This document shows, piece by piece, positions 78 to 36,778 of a stretch of DNA of 36,778 nt (the first letter of the stretch is position 1; every line of letters starts with the position of its first letter). The DNA is taken from IMG/VR virus record IMGVR_UViG_3300045988_162097, positions 1 to 36,778 of that record; one strand, 5' to 3'. The DNA comes from a virus. The position numbers and the translations under genes are program-made. The notes below the pieces were generated by a model. The model ran no database searches, was not told the DNA's origin, and saw nothing but the letters and a program-made list of their open reading frames with translations.

Positions 78-128
78 ATGATGAAAAAATACAGAGCCAT
101 TAAAGCACCCGGTGTTTTAATGTGTTAG
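78..128 (+). CDS. 16-codon mini-ORF (MMKKYRAIKAPGVLMC). It is either a translational-coupling linker ORF or the severed N-terminus of the downstream holin-like gene
   Basis: Strong SD GGAGGG at 66-71, 6 nt before ATG 78. Its ATG overlaps the upstream stop (TGAATG) and its stop TAG 126-128 overlaps GTG 122 of the next gene. A basic N-terminus like this is typical of holin N-termini. Confidence 0.3.
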   Translation: MMKKYRAIKAPGVLMC

Positions 129-532
129 CTCCATGGATATCAGACGCAGTATTAATTGCCTTAATTGGTGGCACAGTCAGTGTAGTCACTGCGTATATGT
201 CCAATCAAGCAAAAAAGAACGCTGACGATATTCTTCGGGAGCTGTCTAAAATGGCCGGGCACATCGAAGAAGTGAAAGCGGAAGTTGCGGAATCAAAAAA
301 AGAAATAAAGGAAGTGAAAGGCATCGGATTGGATAATCGCGGCGGTATCAAGAATACACAGCGTTATCGTCTTTATGCCGATATGAAGGCAGAGCTGCAA
401 CGTGGCTACACTACTGTAAGCCATGCTGCAGAAATTGGTAAGTTGTTCGAGTCTTATACTCACTTAGGTGGGAACGGTGAGATTCAGGACTTACATTCAT
501 TATATTTAAAATTACCGGTTAAACCGGACTAA
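122..532 (+). CDS. Holin-like or lysis-associated membrane protein (one N-terminal TM helix, coiled-coil C-terminal part)
   Basis: Hydrophobic segment WISDAVLIALIGGTVSVVTAYM at the N-terminus. It sits immediately upstream of holin and endolysin. GTG start has no SD of its own (coupled to the mini-ORF). Confidence 0.45.
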   Translation: MLAPWISDAVLIALIGGTVSVVTAYMSNQAKKNADDILRELSKMAGHIEEVKAEVAESKKEIKEVKGIGLDNRGGIKNTQRYRLYADMKAELQRGYTTVSHAAEIGKLFESYTHLGGNGEIQDLHSLYLKLPVKPD

Positions 533-553
533 TCAGAAAAGGGGTTTTTTAAT

Positions 554-910
554 ATGCCAAATTTATATGATTCATTAATTCAAGGTGTTGTAAGTGTTCT
601 TGGAGTTCTAATTGCTATTTTATTCACGGGGCTTCGTGGATATCTGCAGACTAAAGCTGACGAGTTGAAAACTAAGACCGAAGCTCGCAATTATGACCTT
701 GCTAAAAATATTGTAACTACAGTAGTGGGTGCGGTTGAGCAAATCTTCCGACATGTATCTGATGCAGGTGGCAAAGAAAAATTCGAAGCTGCAGAGCGCC
801 AGGTTATCGCTGAGCTAGAAAAAGCCGGCATCCACTTGGACGCTGATTCTCGCAAATCATTAATTGAAGCAGCTGTTAATGGCATCAACTCATTAAAAGA
901 TATTCAGTAA
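554..910 (+). CDS. Holin (small membrane protein, N-terminal TM)
   Basis: 118 aa with TM segment LIQGVVSVLGVLIAILFTGL and a charged C-terminus. Directly precedes the endolysin. RBS AAAAGGGG 9 nt upstream. Confidence 0.55.
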   Translation: MPNLYDSLIQGVVSVLGVLIAILFTGLRGYLQTKADELKTKTEARNYDLAKNIVTTVVGAVEQIFRHVSDAGGKEKFEAAERQVIAELEKAGIHLDADSRKSLIEAAVNGINSLKDIQ

Positions 911-957
911 TTAAAATCGGGAGCTGCGCTGCGGCTCCTTAATTTATGGAGGTTTAT

Positions 958-1839
958 ATGGTTACAGTAAAAGAAGTGCTTGATTTTTATAAATATCTAG
1001 CGGATAACGGTTTAGGTGTCGACAACGATGGAGCTTACGGCTACCAATGCGCGGATGTTCCAGCTTACCTGGCATACCACTATTTCGGCAAGTGGCTTTG
1101 GGGTAATGCGATTAATTTATTAGACTCTGCAAAAGCGCAAGGATTCGAGGTCGTATATGAGGGGCCTGGGGTCAAGGCGAAAGCTGGGGACATTTTTGTC
1201 ATGGAAGTTCCAGGGTCGCCTTATGGGCACACTGGTCTAGTCATCGAGGATTCAGATGGATACACTCTGAAAACCATTGAGCAGAATATTGACGGGAATT
1301 GGGACTACTTAGAAGTAGGCGGTCCAGCTCGTTATAATACACGCTTATATAATGGCATGGTCGGATACATCCGTTTCCCTTACGGGGTGGCAGAAACTCC
1401 GGAAGTGAAGGAGGGCTGGGTCAAGGATGATGCGGGATGGTGGTATCGTAACCAGGACGGGTCATATCCTAAGAACCAATGGAAGACCATCGGGGGCAAT
1501 CTGTTCCGCTTCGATGGCAATGGTTACATTTTAGAGAACCAATGGTTTAAGGACGAAGAGGACGGTCATTGGTACTGGCTTCGCGAAGGCGGCTATATGG
1601 CAACCGGTTGGGTCTACATTGGGGAGTCATGGTACTTCTTTAACTCTGACGGGTCCATGAAGACCGGCTGGGTTTCTTACTTCGACAAATGGTACTATCT
1701 CAAAGAAGAGAACGGGGCCATGATTTCTGAAGAAGTTCGCAATGTGGACGGGTCCTGGTATTATTTCAATAAATCCGGCGAAATGCTAAACAAGGCAGCC
1801 GTGTATGTAGATGATTCAGGTCGTATGCATTTTAAATAA
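958..1839 (+). CDS. Endolysin: N-terminal CHAP peptidase/amidase domain plus C-terminal choline-binding (CW_binding_1) repeats
   Basis: CHAP-like motifs ([13 protein letters not shown]…GHTGLV). The C-terminus has at least 6 aromatic ~20-aa repeats ([42 protein letters not shown]) typical of choline-binding modules. ATG 946 is part of the SD (ATGGAGG), so the start is placed at ATG 958. Confidence 0.85.
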
Positions 1840-1932: not shown

Positions 1933-1946
1933 CATGTGTTTACATG
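1933..1946. promoter_or_regulatory. Palindrome CATGTGTTTACATG. Candidate operator sharing the ATGTAAAC core with both early promoters
   Basis: Perfect inverted repeat CATGT/ACATG. The core GTTTACAT is the reverse complement of the ATGTAAAC found inside both early promoter spacers (2061-2068, 2932-2939). Confidence 0.35.
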
Positions 1947-2051
1947 TTCAGGGTCCTATCGAGCAAATAGGCGCGTTTTTGGACCAATTATCTATACATA
2001 ATATAGAAGCAAAAAAATAAAAAAATAATTTGAATTTATGTCAATTATCTG

Positions 2052-2080
2052 TTGACAAAAATGTAAACCAGAGTTATTAT
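2052..2080 (+). promoter_or_regulatory. Early promoter P1: -35 TTGACA, 17-nt spacer containing ATGTAAAC, -10 TATTAT
   Basis: Near-consensus sigma-A promoter. It lies at the start of the first gene block after the late operon terminator. Confidence 0.55.
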
Positions 2081-2091
2081 ATAGACAGTGA

Positions 2092-2105
2092 AGGGGACGA
2101 CCCCT
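2092..2105 (+). promoter_or_regulatory. 5'-leader stem-loop AGGGG-ACGA-CCCCT of the early transcript, immediately before the SD
   Basis: 5-bp GC stem. The paralogous leader at 2963-2980 keeps a 5-bp stem at the same position with different sequence (compensatory). Confidence 0.4.
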
Positions 2106-2126
2106 ACTAAAGGAGGAAAAAAGAAA

Positions 2127-2666
2127 ATGATTGATTATGTTACAGATATGGAGCGTATGTTGGAATTGATGGAAGACTACGTTGAGGAATACGAAGGCAC
2201 ACCAATTGAAAAAGAAATCGCTGAGTTCTATCGTGTGGCAGTTGAATTATCTGAGCACCAATACTTAAGCGAACAAGAAGCCTACGAAGCAGTTAAGCGT
2301 GTCTTACACGACCAAGAAGGTCTAGTGAGCAGCAATTGGAAAATGAAGGACCGCATGAAAAGTGAAAAAATGGCAAAAGCTGACAAAGTCATGAAAGAAA
2401 TTAAAAGCCTAGTTAGCAATGCACGAATCGAATTATCAAAGAAAGTATTTGACGCTAATAATGGCATGAACGGCAATTTCTTCTATCAAGCATCTAACTA
2501 CTTATACAAATTAACTACTCGCTTAGATGGAGCTACTAGCCTAATGAATGAAAAAGAAATCGATGAGTTGCATATCGTGCGCCGCCTGTCTGAGTACTTG
2601 AAGGATGCGAAGGAAGACTGTAAAAACCTAATGTACTATACAACTAGAATGGAGGAATATAAGTAA
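2127..2666 (+). CDS. First early protein, unknown function. Strongly acidic N-terminal ~60 aa, Lys-rich C-terminal half
   Basis: ORF with SD AAAGGAGG 10 nt upstream of ATG 2127 (track start 2088 lacks an RBS). No recognisable domain. Confidence 0.6.
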   Translation: MIDYVTDMERMLELMEDYVEEYEGTPIEKEIAEFYRVAVELSEHQYLSEQEAYEAVKRVLHDQEGLVSSNWKMKDRMKSEKMAKADKVMKEIKSLVSNARIELSKKVFDANNGMNGNFFYQASNYLYKLTTRLDGATSLMNEKEIDELHIVRRLSEYLKDAKEDCKNLMYYTTRMEEYK

Positions 2667-2926
2667 TGACTAATATTTATAATGAGTTTAGAACCAAAAC
2701 CGTAGCACAAATAAATGATATAATCGAGCATTATTTGGTGCTCGGTGCCTTCGAAGAGATAGAGGTGGCCGCAGGGTACGGTTCCTACGGTCAGCGCCTA
2801 TGCCAGCATGAAGGGGAGTGCAATGAGTACTTTGAGGATAAGTTGGTTGAGGTCATTGATAGAGTGAATGTATGGCATGGACGAACTTACATAAAAAAGT
2901 TTACTAAAATTCAAGATAATAGTTGA
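2666..2926 (+). CDS. Hypothetical early protein (86 aa, CQHEGEC motif)
   Basis: ORF overlapping the upstream stop (TAATG). GGAGG 10 nt upstream. Confidence 0.5.
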   Translation: MTNIYNEFRTKTVAQINDIIEHYLVLGAFEEIEVAAGYGSYGQRLCQHEGECNEYFEDKLVEVIDRVNVWHGRTYIKKFTKIQDNS

Positions 2927-2951
2927 CTATTATGTAAACGAGAGTTGTTAT
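2923..2951 (+). promoter_or_regulatory. Early promoter P2 (diverged duplicate of P1): -35 TTGACT, 17-nt spacer with ATGTAAAC, -10 TGTTAT. Followed by leader hairpin AGGAC…GTCCT (2963-2980)
   Basis: About 80 nt alignable with the P1 region (TTGAC-ATGTAAAC-AGAGTT-TTATATAG-AGTGAAGG). Confidence 0.45.
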
Positions 2952-3002
2952 ATAGGTAGTGAAGGACCGGTAAATGTCCTAGCGGAAGGGGAAAAAGAAA
3001 AA

Positions 3003-3437
3003 ATGATTATTACTAAAAAATTAGCGAAGGAAATCTTCCAAGGGAATTTTAAAAATATTGATTGGAACCAATTGCAAATTGAAAAACTCGGTAACGATAA
3101 GTACATGCATTCAAGAAATTGTTTCCCACCACGTGTCGATTTGTTGGAGGTTTTATATTATAGACCAGAGTTCATTACTAATAAAGAATTCGATAAATTG
3201 ACAAGCATGCACATCGTATATCTTCCAGGAAAGCGCAAAATCCTAAAAGGTAAAAAATACTATGAATATACGGATGTACTATCAATGCGAAAAATGCCCG
3301 ATTGTAAATATCATTTATTAATCCAACGTTGCAAAGCAGAAAGATTCAGAGCTGATTGCAATTTTAACTTTGACAAACCAACCCGTGAATTGCTACTCAA
3401 TAGAATGGCAAAAATGGACGACCGCTTTGGATTCTAA
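3003..3437 (+). CDS. Hypothetical early protein (144 aa, basic, AT-rich gene)
   Basis: ORF with SD GGAAGGGG upstream. No recognisable domain. Confidence 0.55.
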   Translation: MIITKKLAKEIFQGNFKNIDWNQLQIEKLGNDKYMHSRNCFPPRVDLLEVLYYRPEFITNKEFDKLTSMHIVYLPGKRKILKGKKYYEYTDVLSMRKMPDCKYHLLIQRCKAERFRADCNFNFDKPTRELLLNRMAKMDDRFGF

Positions 3438-3447
3438 AAATTATACA

Positions 3448-3705
3448 ATGAAAGGGGGTGAGCGTTTGAGCAGTGTTACTTTTAAACCATTTGACGACTT
3501 GATTCAAAATTCCGGCTTGAAGTTGGACGCGGTAGCCAGCCGCATGGATGTGAGCCGTCAGCGTTTATACGAGTTCAGAAAAGACCCAGTTTGTATGAGC
3601 GTGGACCAGTTGAAAAAGATGGCGGATATATTAGGAGTGGAATTCGCGGACATGTATAATCTGCGTGAAGCGTACCAAAATGAAACAAAAAAGGAGACCC
3701 TATGA
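3448..3705 (+). CDS. XRE-family helix-turn-helix transcriptional regulator (Cro-like early regulator)
   Basis: HTH_XRE-like motif (LKLDAVASRMDVSRQRLYEFRKDP…SVDQLKKMADILGVEF). The start is probably ATG 3448 or TTG 3466 after AAAGGGGG. The track ORF begins at 3370 inside the upstream gene. Confidence 0.6.
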   Translation: MKGGERLSSVTFKPFDDLIQNSGLKLDAVASRMDVSRQRLYEFRKDPVCMSVDQLKKMADILGVEFADMYNLREAYQNETKKETL

Positions 3706-3935
3706 TGCGAAACAAAAAACACAGAAAAGTTAAAATTCAAATGAAGTATTTTATACCTTACCTAATGACCTGGTATATCATATTTTTTGGAGCCATTGTT
3801 GCAATACTGGCATGCGCTGTCTATATCAATAAAGCGATTGTGCAGAAAGATGCGATAATACAGAAGCATATCGATGGTACTTATGTAGAGCCGGATTTCG
3901 TGGACTCTTGGGGTCAAGCAAAAAAACAAAAATAA
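3702..3935 (+). CDS. Small membrane protein (one TM)
   Basis: 77 aa with hydrophobic helix YFIPYLMTWYIIFFGAIVAILACAVYI. SD AAGGAG upstream. Confidence 0.5.
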   Translation: MMRNKKHRKVKIQMKYFIPYLMTWYIIFFGAIVAILACAVYINKAIVQKDAIIQKHIDGTYVEPDFVDSWGQAKKQK

Positions 3936-3950
3936 AAGGAGTGTTTACCT

Positions 3951-4157
3951 ATGCCACCACAAGCAATTAAATTTATTAAAAGTATTTTAACTGAAATGAA
4001 AAAAGATTATATTTCAATGGATGAAGCGATTTTAGCATTGAGAGCATTATCTGGAACTTTTGAGTTCACTACAGTAAGTCTCGGGATGAAATTAGAGAAG
4101 TGCGATTTGGATAAATTGATTAAAAGGTTCAATTCTGAATTGGAGGGCTCTGAATGA
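3951..4157 (+). CDS. Hypothetical small protein, paralog A of a tandem pair
   Basis: 68 aa. The alignable pattern is detailed in the 3951-4345 finding. SD AAAGGAG. Confidence 0.55.
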   Translation: MPPQAIKFIKSILTEMKKDYISMDEAILALRALSGTFEFTTVSLGMKLEKCDLDKLIKRFNSELEGSE

Positions 4158-4345
4158 CTATCGGTGAGTTTCGAGTAGTGAAAGCCATTTTTTATTCAAT
4201 AAAAGAGGGCACTCTTAGTAATAGAGAAGCTATTAAAGTATTAGTTTCAGTGACTAAAGCACTAATTACTTTCACTGAAGTTCTTGAGCTAGAAGTAAAA
4301 AATATGGAACTTAATGAATTAATAAAAAATTTGGATATAAAATAA
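4154..4345 (+). CDS. Hypothetical small protein, paralog B of a tandem pair
   Basis: 63 aa. Start overlaps the upstream stop (ATGA). Similar to the preceding gene. Confidence 0.55.
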   Translation: MTIGEFRVVKAIFYSIKEGTLSNREAIKVLVSVTKALITFTEVLELEVKNMELNELIKNLDIK

Positions 4346-4349
4346 AGGA

Positions 4350-4739
4350 GTGTTATCTGTGACAAAAACGATCAATTTTATGGATTTTAATGTGGATGAG
4401 TTCCACAAAAAAATGATGAATGCAGAAGGGTATAAAAAAGAACTATATGCCACTATGCGCTGCCTAATCGGTGAGACCTGGTTAAATGGTTCAAATTGGA
4501 ACTCTGAGGATGAAGGAGCCGGGCTGCTTGAAATGTTGGAGTTCATGGAGGAGCTATGCCATTATAATAGAATCATGGCCGAGTACCTATTAGAAAAAAT
4601 GGACGCTGACGAAGCGCTTGCTCATTTAAGAATGAAATCTCGCAAATTCTTCATTGAAACCACTTGTCCTAATGAAGCTAATTATATGAAGCGTATGTTT
4701 TCTAGAGTAGACGAAGAAGTAAACGAAGTGCTAGGTTAA
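4350..4739 (+). CDS. Hypothetical protein (129 aa)
   Basis: ORF with GTG start after AAGGAG. No recognisable domain. Confidence 0.5.
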   Translation: MLSVTKTINFMDFNVDEFHKKMMNAEGYKKELYATMRCLIGETWLNGSNWNSEDEGAGLLEMLEFMEELCHYNRIMAEYLLEKMDADEALAHLRMKSRKFFIETTCPNEANYMKRMFSRVDEEVNEVLG

Positions 4740-4754
4740 TGGAAGGAGTGCACC

Positions 4755-6062
4755 ATGGCCGTTAAAATTAATAAATTAGAAATCGAAAATGTTAAGCGTG
4801 TAAAAGCCGTAATGATTGAGCCTACTGCTAACGGGCTGACTATCTTGGGCGGCAATAATAACCAAGGTAAAACCAGTGTGTTGGATTCCATCGCTTGGGC
4901 ATTGGGTGGTAACAAATTCAAACCTAGCAAACCTACCCGTGAAGGGTCCATGAATCCACCAAGCCTACGAGTGGAGCTTTCTAATGGTCTAATCGTGGAG
5001 CGTAAGGGTAAGAACTCAGATTTGAAAGTGACGGACCCATCGGGTGGTCGTGCTGGTCAGCAATTGCTCGATTCATTCGTTGAGGAGTTCGCTTTGAATT
5101 TGCCCAAGTTCATGGAGTCTACTCCAAAAGAAAAAGCAGCGACCTTGCTGCGCATCATCGGTGTAGGTGATAAGCTCTATGCTCTAGATACGAAAGAAGC
5201 GCAGCTCTATAATGAGCGATTGACTATCGGTCGTGTAGCGGACCAAAAGAAAAAGTTTGCAGCCGAACAGCCGCAGTACCCGGAAGCGCCGAACGACTTG
5301 GTCAGCATTGCCGACCTTATTACGGAGCAGCAGACCATCCTTGCTCGCAATGGTGAGAATGCTCAGAAGCGTTTGAACCAGGAAAAAATCAAGAATGATT
5401 TGCATCAGTCTGAAGCACGCCTGGCTCAGTTGAAGGAGGCCCTTGCTGCAGAAGAAGCTGTTCACGATAAGTTGTTTGGTGATTACGTAATCGCCAATAA
5501 AGCAATCGAGGACCTAGTTGATGAATCAACCGCAGAACTTGAGCAGTCAATTGCTGATATCGAAGAAATCAACCGCAAGGTCCGCGCAAACCTTGATAAA
5601 GCAAAAGCAGAAGAAGATGCTGCGGAATTCGCTACTAAGTATGAAGCGCTAAGCGTTGAAATTCAGAAAGTTAGGGACGAGCGTTCACAGTTGCTCGAAA
5701 GTGCCGACCTTCCATTACCTGGTCTATCCGTGGAAGATGGCGAGCTAGTGTTCGAAGGTCAAAAGTGGGACAACATGTCCGGCTCTCAGCAGCTTAGAAT
5801 CTCGACAGCTATTGTTAGAAAATTGAAACCGGATTGCGGTTTCGTGTTACTTGATAAATTAGAGCAGATGGATTTACCTACGTTAACCGAGTTTGGTCAA
5901 TGGCTCGAAAGTGTGGGACTCCAAGCAATCGCCACTCGCGTATCAAGCGGCGAGGAGTGCCAGATTATTATCGAGGATGGATATGTAAAAAGTGATACTG
6001 TGACCCCTTTCCAAAACCCAGCACCTATCGCACCAGGTAAGGATTGGACACAGGACTTTTAA
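4755..6062 (+). CDS. SMC/RecF/SbcC-like AAA ATPase (AAA_23-type) of the replication/recombination module
   Basis: N-terminal P-loop GGNNNQGKTS, long central coiled coil, C-terminal ABC signature-like SGSQQ and D-loop region. Precedes Sak4 as in known Sak4 modules. Confidence 0.7.
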   Translation: MAVKINKLEIENVKRVKAVMIEPTANGLTILGGNNNQGKTSVLDSIAWALGGNKFKPSKPTREGSMNPPSLRVELSNGLIVERKGKNSDLKVTDPSGGRAGQQLLDSFVEEFALNLPKFMESTPKEKAATLLRIIGVGDKLYALDTKEAQLYNERLTIGRVADQKKKFAAEQPQYPEAPNDLVSIADLITEQQTILARNGENAQKRLNQEKIKNDLHQSEARLAQLKEALAAEEAVHDKLFGDYVIANKAIEDLVDESTAELEQSIADIEEINRKVRANLDKAKAEEDAAEFATKYEALSVEIQKVRDERSQLLESADLPLPGLSVEDGELVFEGQKWDNMSGSQQLRISTAIVRKLKPDCGFVLLDKLEQMDLPTLTEFGQWLESVGLQAIATRVSSGEECQIIIEDGYVKSDTVTPFQNPAPIAPGKDWTQDF

Positions 6063-15762: not shown

Positions 15763-15790
15763 GCGCCCTTTTTCCAGGGCGTACTTTTTA
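15763..15790 (+). terminator. Rho-independent terminator after the moron gene
   Basis: Stem CGCCCT/AGGGCG with a 6-nt loop, followed by TACTTTTT. Confidence 0.6.
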
Positions 15791-16837: not shown

Positions 16838-17077
16838 ATGGCGCTTGTTGTTTACTCGAGAAATAATTGCCCCCAGTGTACATTCACAAAGGAGTTTCTT
16901 GAAAAGCATAATATTCCATTTGAATCGGTCAATGTGGAAGTTCAGAACGGCGCATTGGAAATCTTACGGCATTACGGCTGGCAAACTCTGCCAGTCGTAT
17001 CGATTGACGATGAACTGTCTGACCAAACGAAGACCTGGTTCGGTTTTAGACCAGACCGATTAGAATCATTATTGTAG
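16838..17077 (+). CDS. nrdH: NrdH-like glutaredoxin (thioredoxin-fold redoxin)
   Basis: 79 aa with N-terminal CPQC redox motif and an NrdH-like pattern (VVYSRNNCPQC…ESVNVE…WQTLPVV). SD AAGGAGG. Confidence 0.75.
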   Translation: MALVVYSRNNCPQCTFTKEFLEKHNIPFESVNVEVQNGALEILRHYGWQTLPVVSIDDELSDQTKTWFGFRPDRLESLL

Positions 17078-17088
17078 GAGGTTAGATT

Positions 17089-17487
17089 TTGCGTTATAAA
17101 AAAATAGCCGAGCAACGGCTGCGTGATTATCCAAATTATGACCGGGAAATAGCTGCGCATCGGTTGAGCTGGTTATGGCATGACCCGGATTGTAATGCTT
17201 GGATTAAGGGCAAGGGCTCGAACTCGAAAGCTATCGAGAACGAAATGTTAAAAGTCGAATCTTCTCGCTATATTCAGAATCGCCTATTTTGGCAGCAGTG
17301 CGTGAATGAAGTATTGGAAGAGCTCGACCCGAAGCAGCGCCAGTATGTGTCCGAGTATTACTTTGAAAATGTATACGATTATCGCTCTCTAGCTAAGAAG
17401 CATCTTACAAATAAAAATGTCATCATGAGAGCGTGTGATAGAGCATGCATGCTGTTGCTTGAAAAATTAGGCGAAAATGTGGGCTAA
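17089..17487 (+). CDS. ArpU/RinA-family phage late-gene transcriptional activator
   Basis: 132 aa, positioned just before the packaging module. Sigma-70 region-4-like C-terminus. TTG start after AGGAGG. Confidence 0.65.
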   Translation: MRYKKIAEQRLRDYPNYDREIAAHRLSWLWHDPDCNAWIKGKGSNSKAIENEMLKVESSRYIQNRLFWQQCVNEVLEELDPKQRQYVSEYYFENVYDYRSLAKKHLTNKNVIMRACDRACMLLLEKLGENVG

Positions 17488-17495
17488 TTTTAAAA

Positions 17496-17528
17496 AGGGA
17501 CAGGAATGGGTTGTTGTCCCAGCTTTTA
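17496..17528 (+). terminator. Terminator-like hairpin after the ArpU gene
   Basis: Stem GGGACA/TGTCCC (17498-17503 and 17515-17520), followed by AGCTTTT. Confidence 0.5.
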
Positions 17529-17606
17529 TGTGATATATTGCTAATGTGGAAAGTTGCGAAAGCGTACTTCCTGCATGATGTCATAGGTTTGACACTCCTA
17601 CAGTTT

Positions 17607-17634
17607 CGGGAGCTTTGGTGCAGCTCCCGTTTAT
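17607..17634 (+). terminator. Perfect 8-bp hairpin CGGGAGCT-ttggtgc-AGCTCCCG followed by TTTAT. Terminator or attenuator
   Basis: Seen directly. No coding context. Confidence 0.4.
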
Positions 17635-17799
17635 GCCCTTAACTGGTACAACGTGGATTTTCTTTTTTCCTTTGTTAATCCTTTGCCCAGGTTTTATTTT
17701 TGCCACGTTGAGCCGTTCGATTCGGCTATGGGGCTTTTCAAGGCATCTATCCTTGGTGCAATATCATTTTTAACAAAAACTAAAAAAGAAAGGAGCCCG

Positions 17800-17826
17800 G
17801 AGCGATTTTATATCGCTCTTTTTTTG
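17800..17826 (+). terminator. Hairpin GAGCGA-ttttata-TCGCTC plus a T7-8 run, 22 nt before the methyltransferase ATG
   Basis: Classic intrinsic terminator shape. Preceded by an orphan SD-like AAAGGAGC. Confidence 0.5.
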
Positions 17827-17847
17827 CGGCTCAGATAGGTAAAAATA

Positions 17848-19116
17848 ATGCAAATAGAAAAAATAAAAATCGCCGATTTATTGGAATATAAAAACAATGC
17901 AAAAGAGCACCCTCAGTGGCAAATCGACCAAATCGTCGAGTCAATCGAAAAATTCGGATTTAATGACCCGATTGCTATCGATGAAAACAATACAATCATC
18001 GAAGGGCACGGTCGTCTTTATGCGCTGCAAGAAATGGGTGCGGATGAAGTGGAATGTATCCGTCTATCGCACCTAAGCGAAAATAAAAAAAAAGCATACA
18101 TACTCGCTCATAATAAGCTGACTATGAATACCGATTTTGATTCGGACCTGCTCGCTCAGGAGCTGGGCGAAATCGAAGGCATCGACATGAGCTCGTTTGG
18201 TTTCTTGTTGGACCCTATTATTGAAGTAGTTGAGGACGACTTTGACGATGAATCGGTTATCGAGCAGCCGGAGCCGATTGCAAAGCTAGGCGATGTGTAT
18301 CAGCTCGGGGAGCACTTCCTTATGTGTGGGGACAGCACTGATTTCATCGCTGTAAAAAAATTATGTGGTGATGCTCTTATGGACCTACTTGTTACGGACC
18401 CACCTTACAATGTGGCCTACGAAGGAAAAACCGAGGACGCTCTTACGATTGAGAATGACAACATGGACGATGCGAAATTCCGGGAATTCTTAAAAGCTGC
18501 TTTTGCGTGTGCCGATGGCGTTATGCGCCCAGGCGCTGCCTTTTATATTTGGCATGCCGATTCAGAAGGATTTAACTTCCGTGGTGCCTGCCGTGATATT
18601 GGTTGGACTGTTAGACAATGTCTGATATGGAATAAGAACCAAATGGTCCTAGGCCGTCAGGATTACCAGTGGAAGCATGAGCCGTGTCTATACGGGTGGA
18701 AGGATGGAGCAGCTCATTATTTTGTTGATGACCGGAACCTGCTCACGGTCCTAGAAGAAGAATCAGAATTAAAGAAAATGTCAAAAGCGGAGCTCATTAA
18801 TTATATTTTGGAATTTCAGGAGTCTACTGCGACCACTGTGATTAATGAAGTGAAGCCTAGCCGTAATGGTCTACACCCTACGATGAAGCCGCTACGCCTA
18901 ATCGAGCGCCTGGTGCGTAACTCTAGTAAAAAAGGCGAGAATGTGTTAGACCTATTCAATGGCATCGGGTCCACTCTTATGGTCTGCGAGCAATTGGGCC
19001 GCCGGTATTTTGGTATGGAACTCGACCCTCGTTATGTGGATGCTACCATCGAGCGCTGGGAAGAATTCACGGGTAAAAAAGCAGTGAAGATATCTTCAAA
19101 CAATCAAGATAATTAA
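17848..19116 (+). CDS. ParB-like nuclease domain fused to a beta-class N6-adenine/N4-cytosine DNA methyltransferase (orphan methylase, likely anti-restriction)
   Basis: N-terminal ParB-N-like region (…IEGHGRLYAL…). Motif IV DPPYN (LVTDPPYNVAYEG) precedes the SAM-binding motif I (LDLFNGIGST). That motif order is the beta class. Confidence 0.85.
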   Translation: MQIEKIKIADLLEYKNNAKEHPQWQIDQIVESIEKFGFNDPIAIDENNTIIEGHGRLYALQEMGADEVECIRLSHLSENKKKAYILAHNKLTMNTDFDSDLLAQELGEIEGIDMSSFGFLLDPIIEVVEDDFDDESVIEQPEPIAKLGDVYQLGEHFLMCGDSTDFIAVKKLCGDALMDLLVTDPPYNVAYEGKTEDALTIENDNMDDAKFREFLKAAFACADGVMRPGAAFYIWHADSEGFNFRGACRDIGWTVRQCLIWNKNQMVLGRQDYQWKHEPCLYGWKDGAAHYFVDDRNLLTVLEEESELKKMSKAELINYILEFQESTATTVINEVKPSRNGLHPTMKPLRLIERLVRNSSKKGENVLDLFNGIGSTLMVCEQLGRRYFGMELDPRYVDATIERWEEFTGKKAVKISSNNQDN

Positions 19117-19995
19117 TAGCAGGTTTCGTTTGTGAATGGTTATTTTTTCAAGGATTATAACAGCAAAAACATTCAGTAAAGAGAACGTTTCAAGGGTTAT
19201 AAACCTTGATTTTACGCCATTTTCGGGCGTTTATAAACGTGAAGAGAGTTAGTGCAGAGTGTGAAAAGAGTTTATATGAAGAGTTGGCTTGTGAATAAAT
19301 TTATCGTTTTTCGCAAAGGTCAAAAGTTTTGAAAAGGTCGAAAAATTTTTAAACACAAAACATTTCATTTTTTCACGGTTTTTCGAGATTTCTTTGTGAA
19401 TCGTTGTGAACTTACTTTTTGAGCCTTTATAAACACTTTTTTTACGAGATTTAAGGGATTGAAAACCTTGATTTTATGCGTTTTTTAGACTCTTGATAAC
19501 GTTAAATATTTCAACAACGTTTTTTGAAGAGACGTTTTTCATTTTCGTTTGTGAAAAAATCGCATTTAAACGGGAAAAAGTTGCCAAGACTTTTTTTGAC
19601 AACATAACAGCATTTAAAAACCTTGATTTGGCGCCATTTCTAGGTGGTGCATTTTCGCAAGGTTTTACAAGAAACAGAGCAAGAAAAGTTATAAAGTTTA
19701 TTTTTATGTTTATTGTGAAAAAATCTCATTCTTTTGTTAAAAAAGGGCATGAGAGAAATATTTTAAAACAATCAGTTTTTGCCTTTGTGCATTTTTGGTG
19801 CTATCACGATCTAAAATCGCAAAGGTTTTTTACAAGATTTTAAAACCCTATAACGGCGCCTTTTGTCGGGTGTCGTTTTTTAGTTTTTACCGCATGAGAG
19901 TTCCCAAGAGTTTGGGCGTCCTTTTCCTTTGTGAAAAATCAGCGGTAAAATAATCATAAAGACAAAAGACTAGCAAAAAAAGGAAGTGAGGCGGT
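19117..19995. repeat. 870-bp AT-rich non-coding region packed with dispersed or tandemly diverged repeats (AAACCTTGATTT x3; TTTGTGAA[A/T] x6 or more; TTATAAAC x3; GCGCC-ATTT-..GGGTG x3; TCGCAAAGGT x3). Candidate pac/terminase recognition region, late regulatory region or ncRNA locus
   Basis: Seen directly. It is the only large gap in an otherwise compact genome and lies immediately upstream of terS. The only ORF here (19493-19843) is a Phe-rich, low-complexity product of T-rich sequence and has no RBS. Confidence 0.6.
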
Positions 19996-24376: not shown

Positions 24377-24402
24377 TAATTAAAAAGTTGAATTAATGAA
24401 GC

Positions 24403-24430
24403 TGGTTGCTTAGGCAGCCGGCTTTTTAAT
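24403..24430 (+). terminator. Terminator-like hairpin (8-bp stem CTGGTTGC/GCAGCCGG with 2 G-U pairs, TTAG loop) plus CTTTTT
   Basis: Seen directly downstream of the 70-aa gene, before the scaffold gene. Confidence 0.45.
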
Positions 24431-24506
24431 TTGCCCAGGCTTGGAAGGCATTAAAAGCTAAGGATTACATAGTCGGGGACGACTTAAAAAATAGGAGGTT
24501 TTCATT

Positions 24507-25103
24507 ATGGAAAACGAAGAAAAAAATACAAATGTCAACCTGGATAACCCAGCAGCGCATAAGGAACCTGCAGAACCAAAAGCGCCCGAAGTGAACCTGG
24601 ATGACGAAAAAAAATACACTGATGCGGATGTCAATGCCATCATTGATAAAAAGTTCGCTAAGTGGAAGCAAGACCTCGAGCGCAAAGAAACCGAAGCTAA
24701 AAAATTGGCGAAAATGAACGCCGATGAAAAAGCGAAGTATGAGCGTGAAAAAGCTGAGCGTGAATTGGCCGACCGTGAAGCTGCAATCACTAGACGTGAG
24801 CTTGCTGCCACTGCTAAGGAGACATTAACCGAGAAAGGGCTACTGTCTGATTTAGCCAGTGTGTTAGATTATACGGATGCGGAATCGTGCCAGGCATCAA
24901 TTGCTGCGGTCGAGAAAGCATTCAGCGCTGCTGTCAATAAGGCAGTAGAAAGTAAACTAAAGGGTGGCGCCCCTATTCCAAAAGCGCCGGAAGCTGGTGG
25001 GGTATCTCATGAGCAATTCTTACGAATGACAGCTAATGAGCGCATTGCTTTGAAAATGTCTGACCCCGAATTATATGAATCTTTAAAATCGAAAGGAAGA
25101 TAA
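24507..25103 (+). CDS. Scaffolding protein
   Basis: 198 aa, highly charged (E/K-rich) with a predicted coiled coil. Immediately upstream of the major capsid gene. Confidence 0.7.
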   Translation: MENEEKNTNVNLDNPAAHKEPAEPKAPEVNLDDEKKYTDADVNAIIDKKFAKWKQDLERKETEAKKLAKMNADEKAKYEREKAERELADREAAITRRELAATAKETLTEKGLLSDLASVLDYTDAESCQASIAAVEKAFSAAVNKAVESKLKGGAPIPKAPEAGGVSHEQFLRMTANERIALKMSDPELYESLKSKGR

Positions 25104-36537: not shown

Positions 36538-36778
36538 TGATCACGATCGATTTAGGAAAATTAAACCGTTTATTATCCGAATCCGACAAGCAGTCGGAAT
36601 TGCTGCAGGGAGCGTTGGATGAATTATACGGTAAAAAGGCAGTGTTAGAATCTCAATTAAAAACTGTGGATTCTAAAATTACAGAAAAAATTAATGAGAT
36701 GTCATCCATCCAATTGAACAAGCAAGAACTTGCTAGTGCACTGGAATGGTTGAAAGAACACGCAGAGCCTGGTGCTGC
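36538..36778 (+). CDS. Small coiled-coil protein preceding the lysis cassette (5' part; continues at 1..77)
   Basis: SD AGGAGG. The ORF runs off the window end and continues in frame at the window start because of the circular duplication. Confidence 0.5.

Follow-up and report, generated by a model that had tools for sequence, protein, structure and literature searches.

What are the two similar blocks, each of about 80 bp, that are found in the early region of this phage, one between the lysis genes and the first of a series of small genes, the other at the end of the second of those genes? A preliminary description took each block for an early promoter with near-consensus hexamers, saw in both spacers (and, inverted, in a palindrome somewhat upstream) the same 8-mer, and proposed a three-site operator, possibly bound by a Cro-like protein encoded nearby, that would control two early transcription units. 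The question is whether the sequence common to the blocks is that of an operator or that of a promoter the phage happens to possess twice. We think it probable, judging from sequence comparison, that the blocks are a duplicated sigma-A early promoter joined to a leader, with promoter activity and start sites as predicted features.

The genome around the blocks

The stretch of DNA analysed (the window, 36,778 nt) ends as it begins, with an exact repeat of 55 nt (1-55 = 36724-36778), and it is therefore taken to be a whole genome (about 36.7 kb), assembled as a circle. Its GC content is 43.9%, and all plausible genes of the phage lie on the + strand. Holins and a CHAP/choline-binding endolysin are encoded at 122-1839 (+), the last position being the end of the endolysin stop codon. 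Directly 3' of that stop is the top-ranked terminator-like site of the terminator scan, an intrinsic terminator (1852-1884, also given as 1852-1874, +) with a 9-bp GC-rich stem and a T-run, which closes the late (lysis) operon. After this terminator come a gap of 290 nt, then small genes with no assigned function, and then the replication module (an AAA_23 ATPase, a Sak4-like protein, a helicase, a primase, and RusA). Past the replication module, the order is a regulator of the ArpU/RinA type (17089-17487, +, a weak match), a ParB-methyltransferase, the terminase, and the structural genes.

A glutaredoxin is encoded at 16838-17077, and the gene at 17848-19116 fuses a ParB domain to a DNA methyltransferase. 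Between the latter gene and that of the ArpU-like regulator there is a non-coding stretch of 360 nt (17488-17847), ended by a terminator-like hairpin (17799-17819). Another non-coding gap, of 380 nt, 3' of the ArpU-like regulator and 5' of the terminase genes, contains four copies (77-100% identical) of the 26-nt repeat TTATAAACCTTGATTTTACGCCATTT (window positions 19197-19639), which might represent a pac site, an origin, or an element of a late promoter. In the relatives L001 (4508-6205), L067 (708-2316), and L068 (1354-2943), one or two extra genes, absent here, stand between holin and endolysin, one of them encoding a collagen-repeat protein (PF01391).

The terminase shares 74.5% of its residues with terminases of pneumococcal prophages, the lysin 46-49% with phage lysins of S. 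mitis and S. infantis, and replication and terminase proteins 63-75% with proteins of streptococcal prophages. By these resemblances the genome is that of a siphovirus of the mitis-group Streptococcus type, the host being assigned by protein similarity only. In a megablast search with 8 kb of the genome, known phages yielded no match. Searches found no integrase, no CI, and no second helix-turn-helix (HTH) protein, bearing out the initial remark that a CI-type repressor is missing. The promoter motif described below is likewise absent from 185,579 representative bacterial genomes, except for one chance match in Clostridium, and this absence fits a non-lysogenic lifestyle. It would seem, then, that the phage is virulent and related to temperate phages of mitis-group streptococci.

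The integrase/CI lysogeny module normally comes after the endolysin. In this genome it would have been replaced by the small, forward-oriented genes, making the region between the lysis and replication modules a lysogeny-replacement region; integrase and CI are absent, and the other modules are homologous to those of prophages. Lysogeny-replacement modules between lysis and replication genes have been described in virulent dairy streptococcal phages (PMC8470116).

Two promoters and their leaders

The core of the first block, P1 (2052-2094, +), adjoins the lysis terminator on its downstream side. It consists of a -35 hexamer TTGACA (2052-2057), a spacer of 17 nt that holds the 8-mer ATGTAAAC at 2061-2068, a -10 hexamer TATTAT (2075-2080), and then AGTGAAGG. 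TTGACA-17-TATTAT agrees with the consensus at 11 of 12 positions, and no other sigma-70-type match on the coding strand is as good. The DNA 5' of the -35 hexamer (2011-2051, +) is AT-rich, with A-tracts, and is a candidate UP element; the lineages agree in 90% of its alignment columns. It includes TGTCAA (2041-2046), which is the -35 hexamer inverted, and an imperfect inverted repeat (2029-2044 with 2052-2067, 81% complementary) links it to the core.

The core of the second block, P2 (2923-2965, +), is identical to that of P1 at 36 of 43 bases. Its -35 hexamer TTGACT (2923-2928) overlaps the stop codon (TGA, 2924-2926) of gp2, its spacer holds ATGTAAAC at 2932-2939, and its -10 hexamer is TGTTAT (2946-2951), with AGTGAAGG following as in P1. 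A degenerate pattern of 43 nt matches only at 2052-2094 and 2923-2965, and it had no match in 100 shuffles. Farther along, a second segment containing the Shine-Dalgarno (SD) sequence, an A-rich tract, and ATGATT (2110-2132 in one block, 2986-3008 in the other) is 83% identical. Between the core and SD segments of both blocks is a variable hairpin, with a length difference of 5 nt. The two blocks are thus real. What had been said of their hexamers stands for P1 but not for P2 as it occurs here: TTGACT-17-TGTTAT is without the near-invariant A at the second position of the -10 hexamer, and the promoter scan did not pick it. P1 and, in relatives, P2 (TTGACT-17-TATTAT) have what marks a sigma-A promoter, namely TTGACA-like and TATAAT-like hexamers 17±1 bp apart, the -10 hexamer with A at position 2 and T at position 6. 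The P2 of this genome departs from this at position 2, and the G at this critical position has probably weakened it. In placement, both are as one would expect of sigma-A promoters: P1 comes after a terminator, and both lie on the coding strand 5' of an SD sequence and an ATG.

From the positions of the -10 hexamers (about 7 nt past them), transcripts are predicted to start near 2087/2088 and 2958/2959, in agreement with the starts first proposed, and both predicted transcripts start AGUGAAGG. The P1 leader (2087-2126, +) would form a hairpin, A-GGGG/ACGA/CCCC-T (2092-2105), that opens within the last bases of this 8-mer and is followed by the SD sequence AAAGGAGG (2109-2116). The P2 leader (2958-3002, +) would form AGGAC/CGGTAAAT/GTCCT (2963-2980), followed by GGAAGGGG (2984-2991). 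Both leaders, then, run from AGTGAAGG through a 5-bp hairpin to SD and ATG, the hairpins differing in sequence (GGGG/CCCC vs. GGAC/GTCC) and starting in the same register. The fold energy is -8.3 kcal/mol for the P1 leader and, for the P2 leader, -6.6 here and -7.7 to -11 in relatives; taken together, the hairpins have little stability (-6.6 to -11 kcal/mol, with z-scores from -0.7 to -3.2). Among P2 variants the loop changes, the stem is retained, and the hairpin folds in every case, while the P1 leader is invariant in relatives. Within each copy the stem does not vary, so orthologues offer no true covariation. A 5' hairpin and then a strong SD sequence is a layout typical of 5'-stabilised, efficiently translated Gram-positive mRNAs, and by analogy the hairpins may have this role. 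An RNA structure predicted in the upstream gap (1876-2050, z = -2.5) was rejected, as substitutions in relatives break the predicted pairs.

P1 stands before gp1 (2127-2666, +, 179 aa, with its ATG at 2127) and gp2 (2666-2926, +, 86 aa), and the first gene after P2 is gp3 (3003-3437, +, 144 aa, with its ATG at 3003). None of the three has a family match in Pfam or PHROG. Their homologues are confined to this phage group, with identities of 74-100% for gp1 and gp2 and 69-98% for gp3. Behind gp3 is the gene of the XRE/Cro-like protein noted at the outset (3466-3705, +, if it starts at TTG 3466, which has an SD sequence; ATG 3448 is the other possible start). Its assignment was confirmed: the protein matches HTH_26 and HTH_3 above the cut-offs, is 37-39% identical to the products of Cro-position genes, divergent from CI, in Javan83 and Javan394, and is 27% identical to Tec of r1t, and it is by homology and position of the Cro type. 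No relative of solved structure was found. The exact segment that encodes its helix-turn-helix is a run of 47 nt (3529-3575) invariant in five lineages, synonymous sites included.

The two blocks, in our preferred reading, would be tandem copies of one early promoter-plus-leader cassette, read by the host's RNA polymerase with its primary sigma factor at the start of infection. P1, with its AT-rich upstream tract, would be the main early promoter and would drive gp1-gp2. On the + strand, the terminator scan found no terminator-like site at 2100-5800, hence none before P2, so transcripts from P1 should run on into gp3, the HTH gene, and the replication genes. Given such read-through, P2 would serve as an internal booster from gp3 onward. 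Transcripts from either promoter would lead from AGUGAAGG into a 5-bp hairpin near the 5' end and then to a strong SD sequence. What the spacers share (ATGTAAA..AGAGTT) would reflect common descent of the copies together with purifying selection on the whole P1 core.

Conservation and the case for an operator

About 15 related contigs, all from human-associated metagenomes, were gathered by pattern and protein searches. There are at least three lineages: W (this genome), L065/L066 (92% identical to W), and L001/L067/L068 (86-87%). The P1 and P2 modules occupy the same places in all the related contigs, and the duplication appears to predate the split of the lineages. The proposal of two early promoter units holds up, in that P1 heads the early region after the lysis terminator and both modules are kept in every relative.

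Conservation was assessed in an alignment of five lineages (5.1 kb, differing at 8-14% of bases), in which 78% of columns are invariant overall. The second longest invariant run, 59 nt (2049-2107), extends from 3 bases 5' of the -35 hexamer of P1 to the end of its leader hairpin; P1 is identical in all related contigs. In the adjoining gp1, invariant columns are down to 56-70%. The idea that the whole intergenic region is unusually conserved was rejected, as in a sliding comparison nothing but the P1 core was exceptional. Constraint on P2 is looser: 4 of its positions vary among lineages, 3 of them in this genome only. In all other lineages the 8-mer of P2 is ATGTAAAT and its -10 hexamer TATTAT, so the C and the TGTTAT found in P2 here are derived. 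Both promoters keep ATGTAAA and AGAGTT unchanged throughout the lineages. This pattern suggests that P1 is under strong purifying selection and that P2 is relaxed. The invariance of the spacer, discriminator, and hairpin of P1 exceeds the needs of -35/-10 function alone, and it is compatible with an additional factor bound at P1.

Could that factor be the Cro-type protein? Perhaps it binds the -35/spacer regions of P1 and P2 and lowers early transcription later in infection. Such feedback is possible, though we would sooner bet against it. The candidate site is an imperfect dyad, GTTGACA-N4-TGTAAAC, and it would make two sites, not three. The gene lies downstream of P2, and it is homologous to tec of r1t and, in Javan83 and Javan394, to the genes next to CI in the Cro position. 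The P1 spacer is invariant in five lineages, the region encoding the recognition helix (3529-3575) is also an invariant run, and ATGTAAA and AGAGTT stay constant in both promoters across lineages. At P1, the half-sites of the dyad (GTTGACA and GTTTACA, read directly from the sequence) agree at 6 of 7 positions, but the agreement falls to 5 of 7 for P2 of the present genome and to 4 of 7 for P2 of relatives, and the -35 hexamer alone makes up half of the dyad. Furthermore, the 8-mer of P2 has C or T despite an identical recognition helix, and the invariance spans the whole P1 core, not the 8-mer specifically. Nor do the homologues help: the CI-cro intergenic regions of Javan83, Javan394, and Javan491 contain no shared operator motif and none resembling that of P1/P2, the only feature common to them being the -35 context CTGTTGACAAA.

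One might extend the proposal and regard the 59-nt P1 block and its copy at P2 as together forming a composite control element, in a virulent phage that is 'Cro-only'. By binding the -35/spacer dyad with ATGTAAAY, the Cro/Tec homologue would then shut off early transcription, as a relic of a temperate switch re-used without its repressor, and the hairpin at the start of the transcript would add a layer of control at the RNA level. We regard this extended form as doubtful.

The upstream site, in our judgement, does not belong to such a scheme. The sequence CATGTGTTTACATG (1933-1946), which contains the reverse complement of ATGTAAAC, had been called a palindrome; it is not a true one but a 5+5 inverted repeat, CATGT-N4-ACATG, with arms of 5 nt. 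The 8-mer does occur at the three sites named, at 2061, at 2932, and reverse-complemented at 1938-1945. Three copies in the genome compare with 1.45 expected, and 19 of 100 shuffles give at least three; locally, the chance that any of three 8-mers shared by the blocks lands in the 211-nt upstream gap is about 2%. Among relatives the upstream 8-mer is polymorphic: it reads GTTTACAT in W and L065, GTTTATAT in five lineages, and GTTTGTAT in L026, being altered at 1-2 positions in 6 of 8 aligned relatives. All lineages have one and the same recognition helix in the HTH protein, yet the upstream site and P2 both vary; if it is the 8-mer that the protein reads, neither site is being kept to it. There is no dyad common to the three sites. 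GTTGACA-N4-TGTAAAC is absent at the upstream site, which shares the 8-mer only, with unrelated flanks and no partner half-site. An operator set of the Cro/CI type would be expected to have a dyad consensus in at least three sites, conservation in relatives, and an HTH regulator encoded nearby; here one finds the regulator (3466-3705) and neither of the others. On these grounds (an upstream 8-mer at chance level and polymorphic, ATGTAAAT in the P2 of other lineages, and no common dyad) the three-site operator lacks support in the sequence, and we judge the upstream 8-mer to be a coincidental match outside the functional unit. A comparison by eye of the spacer with host-regulator boxes (cre, WalR, CtsR, CIRCE, LexA-like) turned up only a cre half-site, and such boxes were therefore discarded as an explanation.

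The sequence of the blocks was also sought elsewhere. A pattern scan of metagenomes gave about eight unrelated loci, in line with chance expectation. At one of them, L029 3660-3760 (minus strand), in an unrelated phage of 34% GC, TTGACATTTATGTAAACAAGAGTTATAGT lies directly 5' of an XRE gene and matches the -35 hexamer, spacer 8-mer, and AGAGTT of P1/P2; it looks like a real promoter. It was rejected as a related operator or promoter: the HTH proteins are only 20% identical, the match was selected by the search pattern, and the count of matches is at chance level. A scan of viral contigs for TTATATAG..AGTGAAGG produced mostly matches in coding sequence. An unrelated podovirus of 15 kb and 52% GC with a polymerase of the protein-primed type (L046 150-260) has TGgTATTATATAGACAGTGAAGGG before its first gene, of which 21 nt are identical to P1 from -10 to +8, and then a small hairpin; this match, too, was set aside, as probably a coincidence. 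Within the present genome, GATTACATAGTCGGGGACGAC at 24463-24483, 5' of the gene at 24507 and after a terminator (24398-24425), shares ATTAYATAG and the 9-mer GGGGACGAC with the -10/leader of P1. The 9-mer has 2 copies in the genome vs. 0.08 expected, and GATTACATAGTCGGGGACGAC, which precedes the capsid genes, may act as an internal promoter or else as a site of processing or stabilisation.

Might the repeats be there for recombination? The 43-nt direct repeats would in that case flank gp1-gp2 as a cassette to be gained or lost, and gene conversion would keep them similar, which we find quite unlikely. In relatives the P1/P2 repeats contain a 24-nt exact block, and one contig, L025 (SKEM01015519.1), fuses the upstream region and core of P1 to the leader of P2 and gp3, with about 870 nt, including gp1-gp2, missing. 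This contig, however, is a metagenome contig of 1158 nt, and a 24-nt exact repeat can yield the same join as an assembly artefact, so the fusion in L025 is due to a natural deletion between repeats or else to chimeric assembly. Moreover, three positions at which P2 here has departed from P1 speak against conversion being still at work, and the invariance of P1 is left unexplained.

It is highly improbable that the leader (AGUGAAGG plus hairpin) is a nut/put-like RNA element by which polymerase resists terminators, such as the terminator-like site at 15763-15782, which lies inside the long early region and precedes the gene of the ArpU-like late regulator. Each early promoter is indeed followed by a copy, as with nutL and nutR of lambda, and in each copy a conserved linear 8-mer leads into a 5-bp hairpin. 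But the hairpin behind the two promoters is not the same, stems and loops being wholly different (GGGG/ACGA/CCCC in P1, GGAC/6-8 nt loop/GTCC in P2) and offering no common recognition surface, no N-like protein was identified, and an Rfam search of the whole window found no match.

Known counterparts and significance

As an element, the duplicated cassette is of an ordinary kind; the phage group that carries it is one not described before. Tandem early promoters of the sigma-A/sigma-70 type are well known from virulent phages, such as T5 and T7, SPP1 (PE1-PE3), and the lactococcal c2 and 936-type phages, with their early promoter clusters. There, as here, several near-consensus host-type promoters head the early region, with AT-rich upstream tracts and common sequence beyond the hexamers, and those promoters act without a phage factor. 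The predicted promoters of the present phage differ in number, being just a pair, in their close likeness, which extends over the spacer and the first 8 bases of the predicted transcript, and in having a 5' hairpin each.

As for the position of the cassettes, the comparison of Sfi19 and Sfi21 reportedly dealt with lysogeny-replacement modules of virulent Streptococcus thermophilus phages. The modules of S. thermophilus phages (PMC8470116), like the region considered here, lie between the lysis genes and the replication module, and in both cases integrase and CI are absent, a Cro-like gene is kept, and the rest of the genome resembles that of temperate streptococcal phages. The present phage, by contrast, has another host group (choline-binding lysin, pneumococcal-type terminase) and unrelated gene content, and a duplicated promoter cassette is not a described feature of the S. 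thermophilus modules.

The switches of the lambda type (CI/Cro, with OR and OL) and the r1t type (Rro/Tec, with O1-O3) also have an XRE protein, homologous to Cro/Tec, encoded just 3' of an early promoter, and repeated elements that overlap promoter cores. They differ from the arrangement here, which has no repressor gene, no divergent pair (the promoters are tandem, not back-to-back), no clear shared dyad, and a third site that is not conserved. The leaders, finally, resemble the 5'-proximal stem-loop stabilisers of Gram-positive mRNAs (the ermC, aprE, and SP82 leader types), in which a short hairpin within a few bases of the 5' end (here predicted) precedes a strong SD sequence. The stems here are, in comparison, short (5 bp) and weak, and the 5' end is a predicted one.

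No new regulatory principle is revealed by these cassettes, and the notion of an operator within them is an ordinary hypothesis. For an uncultured group of phages of the oral-streptococcus type, the place where the infection programme likely begins has been located, and the two compact promoter-leader cassettes, predicted to be very strong, are possible parts for gene expression. It also points to a route by which a genome of temperate type may become virulent, the lysogeny module giving way to small early genes that stand, set by set, behind copies of a single promoter.
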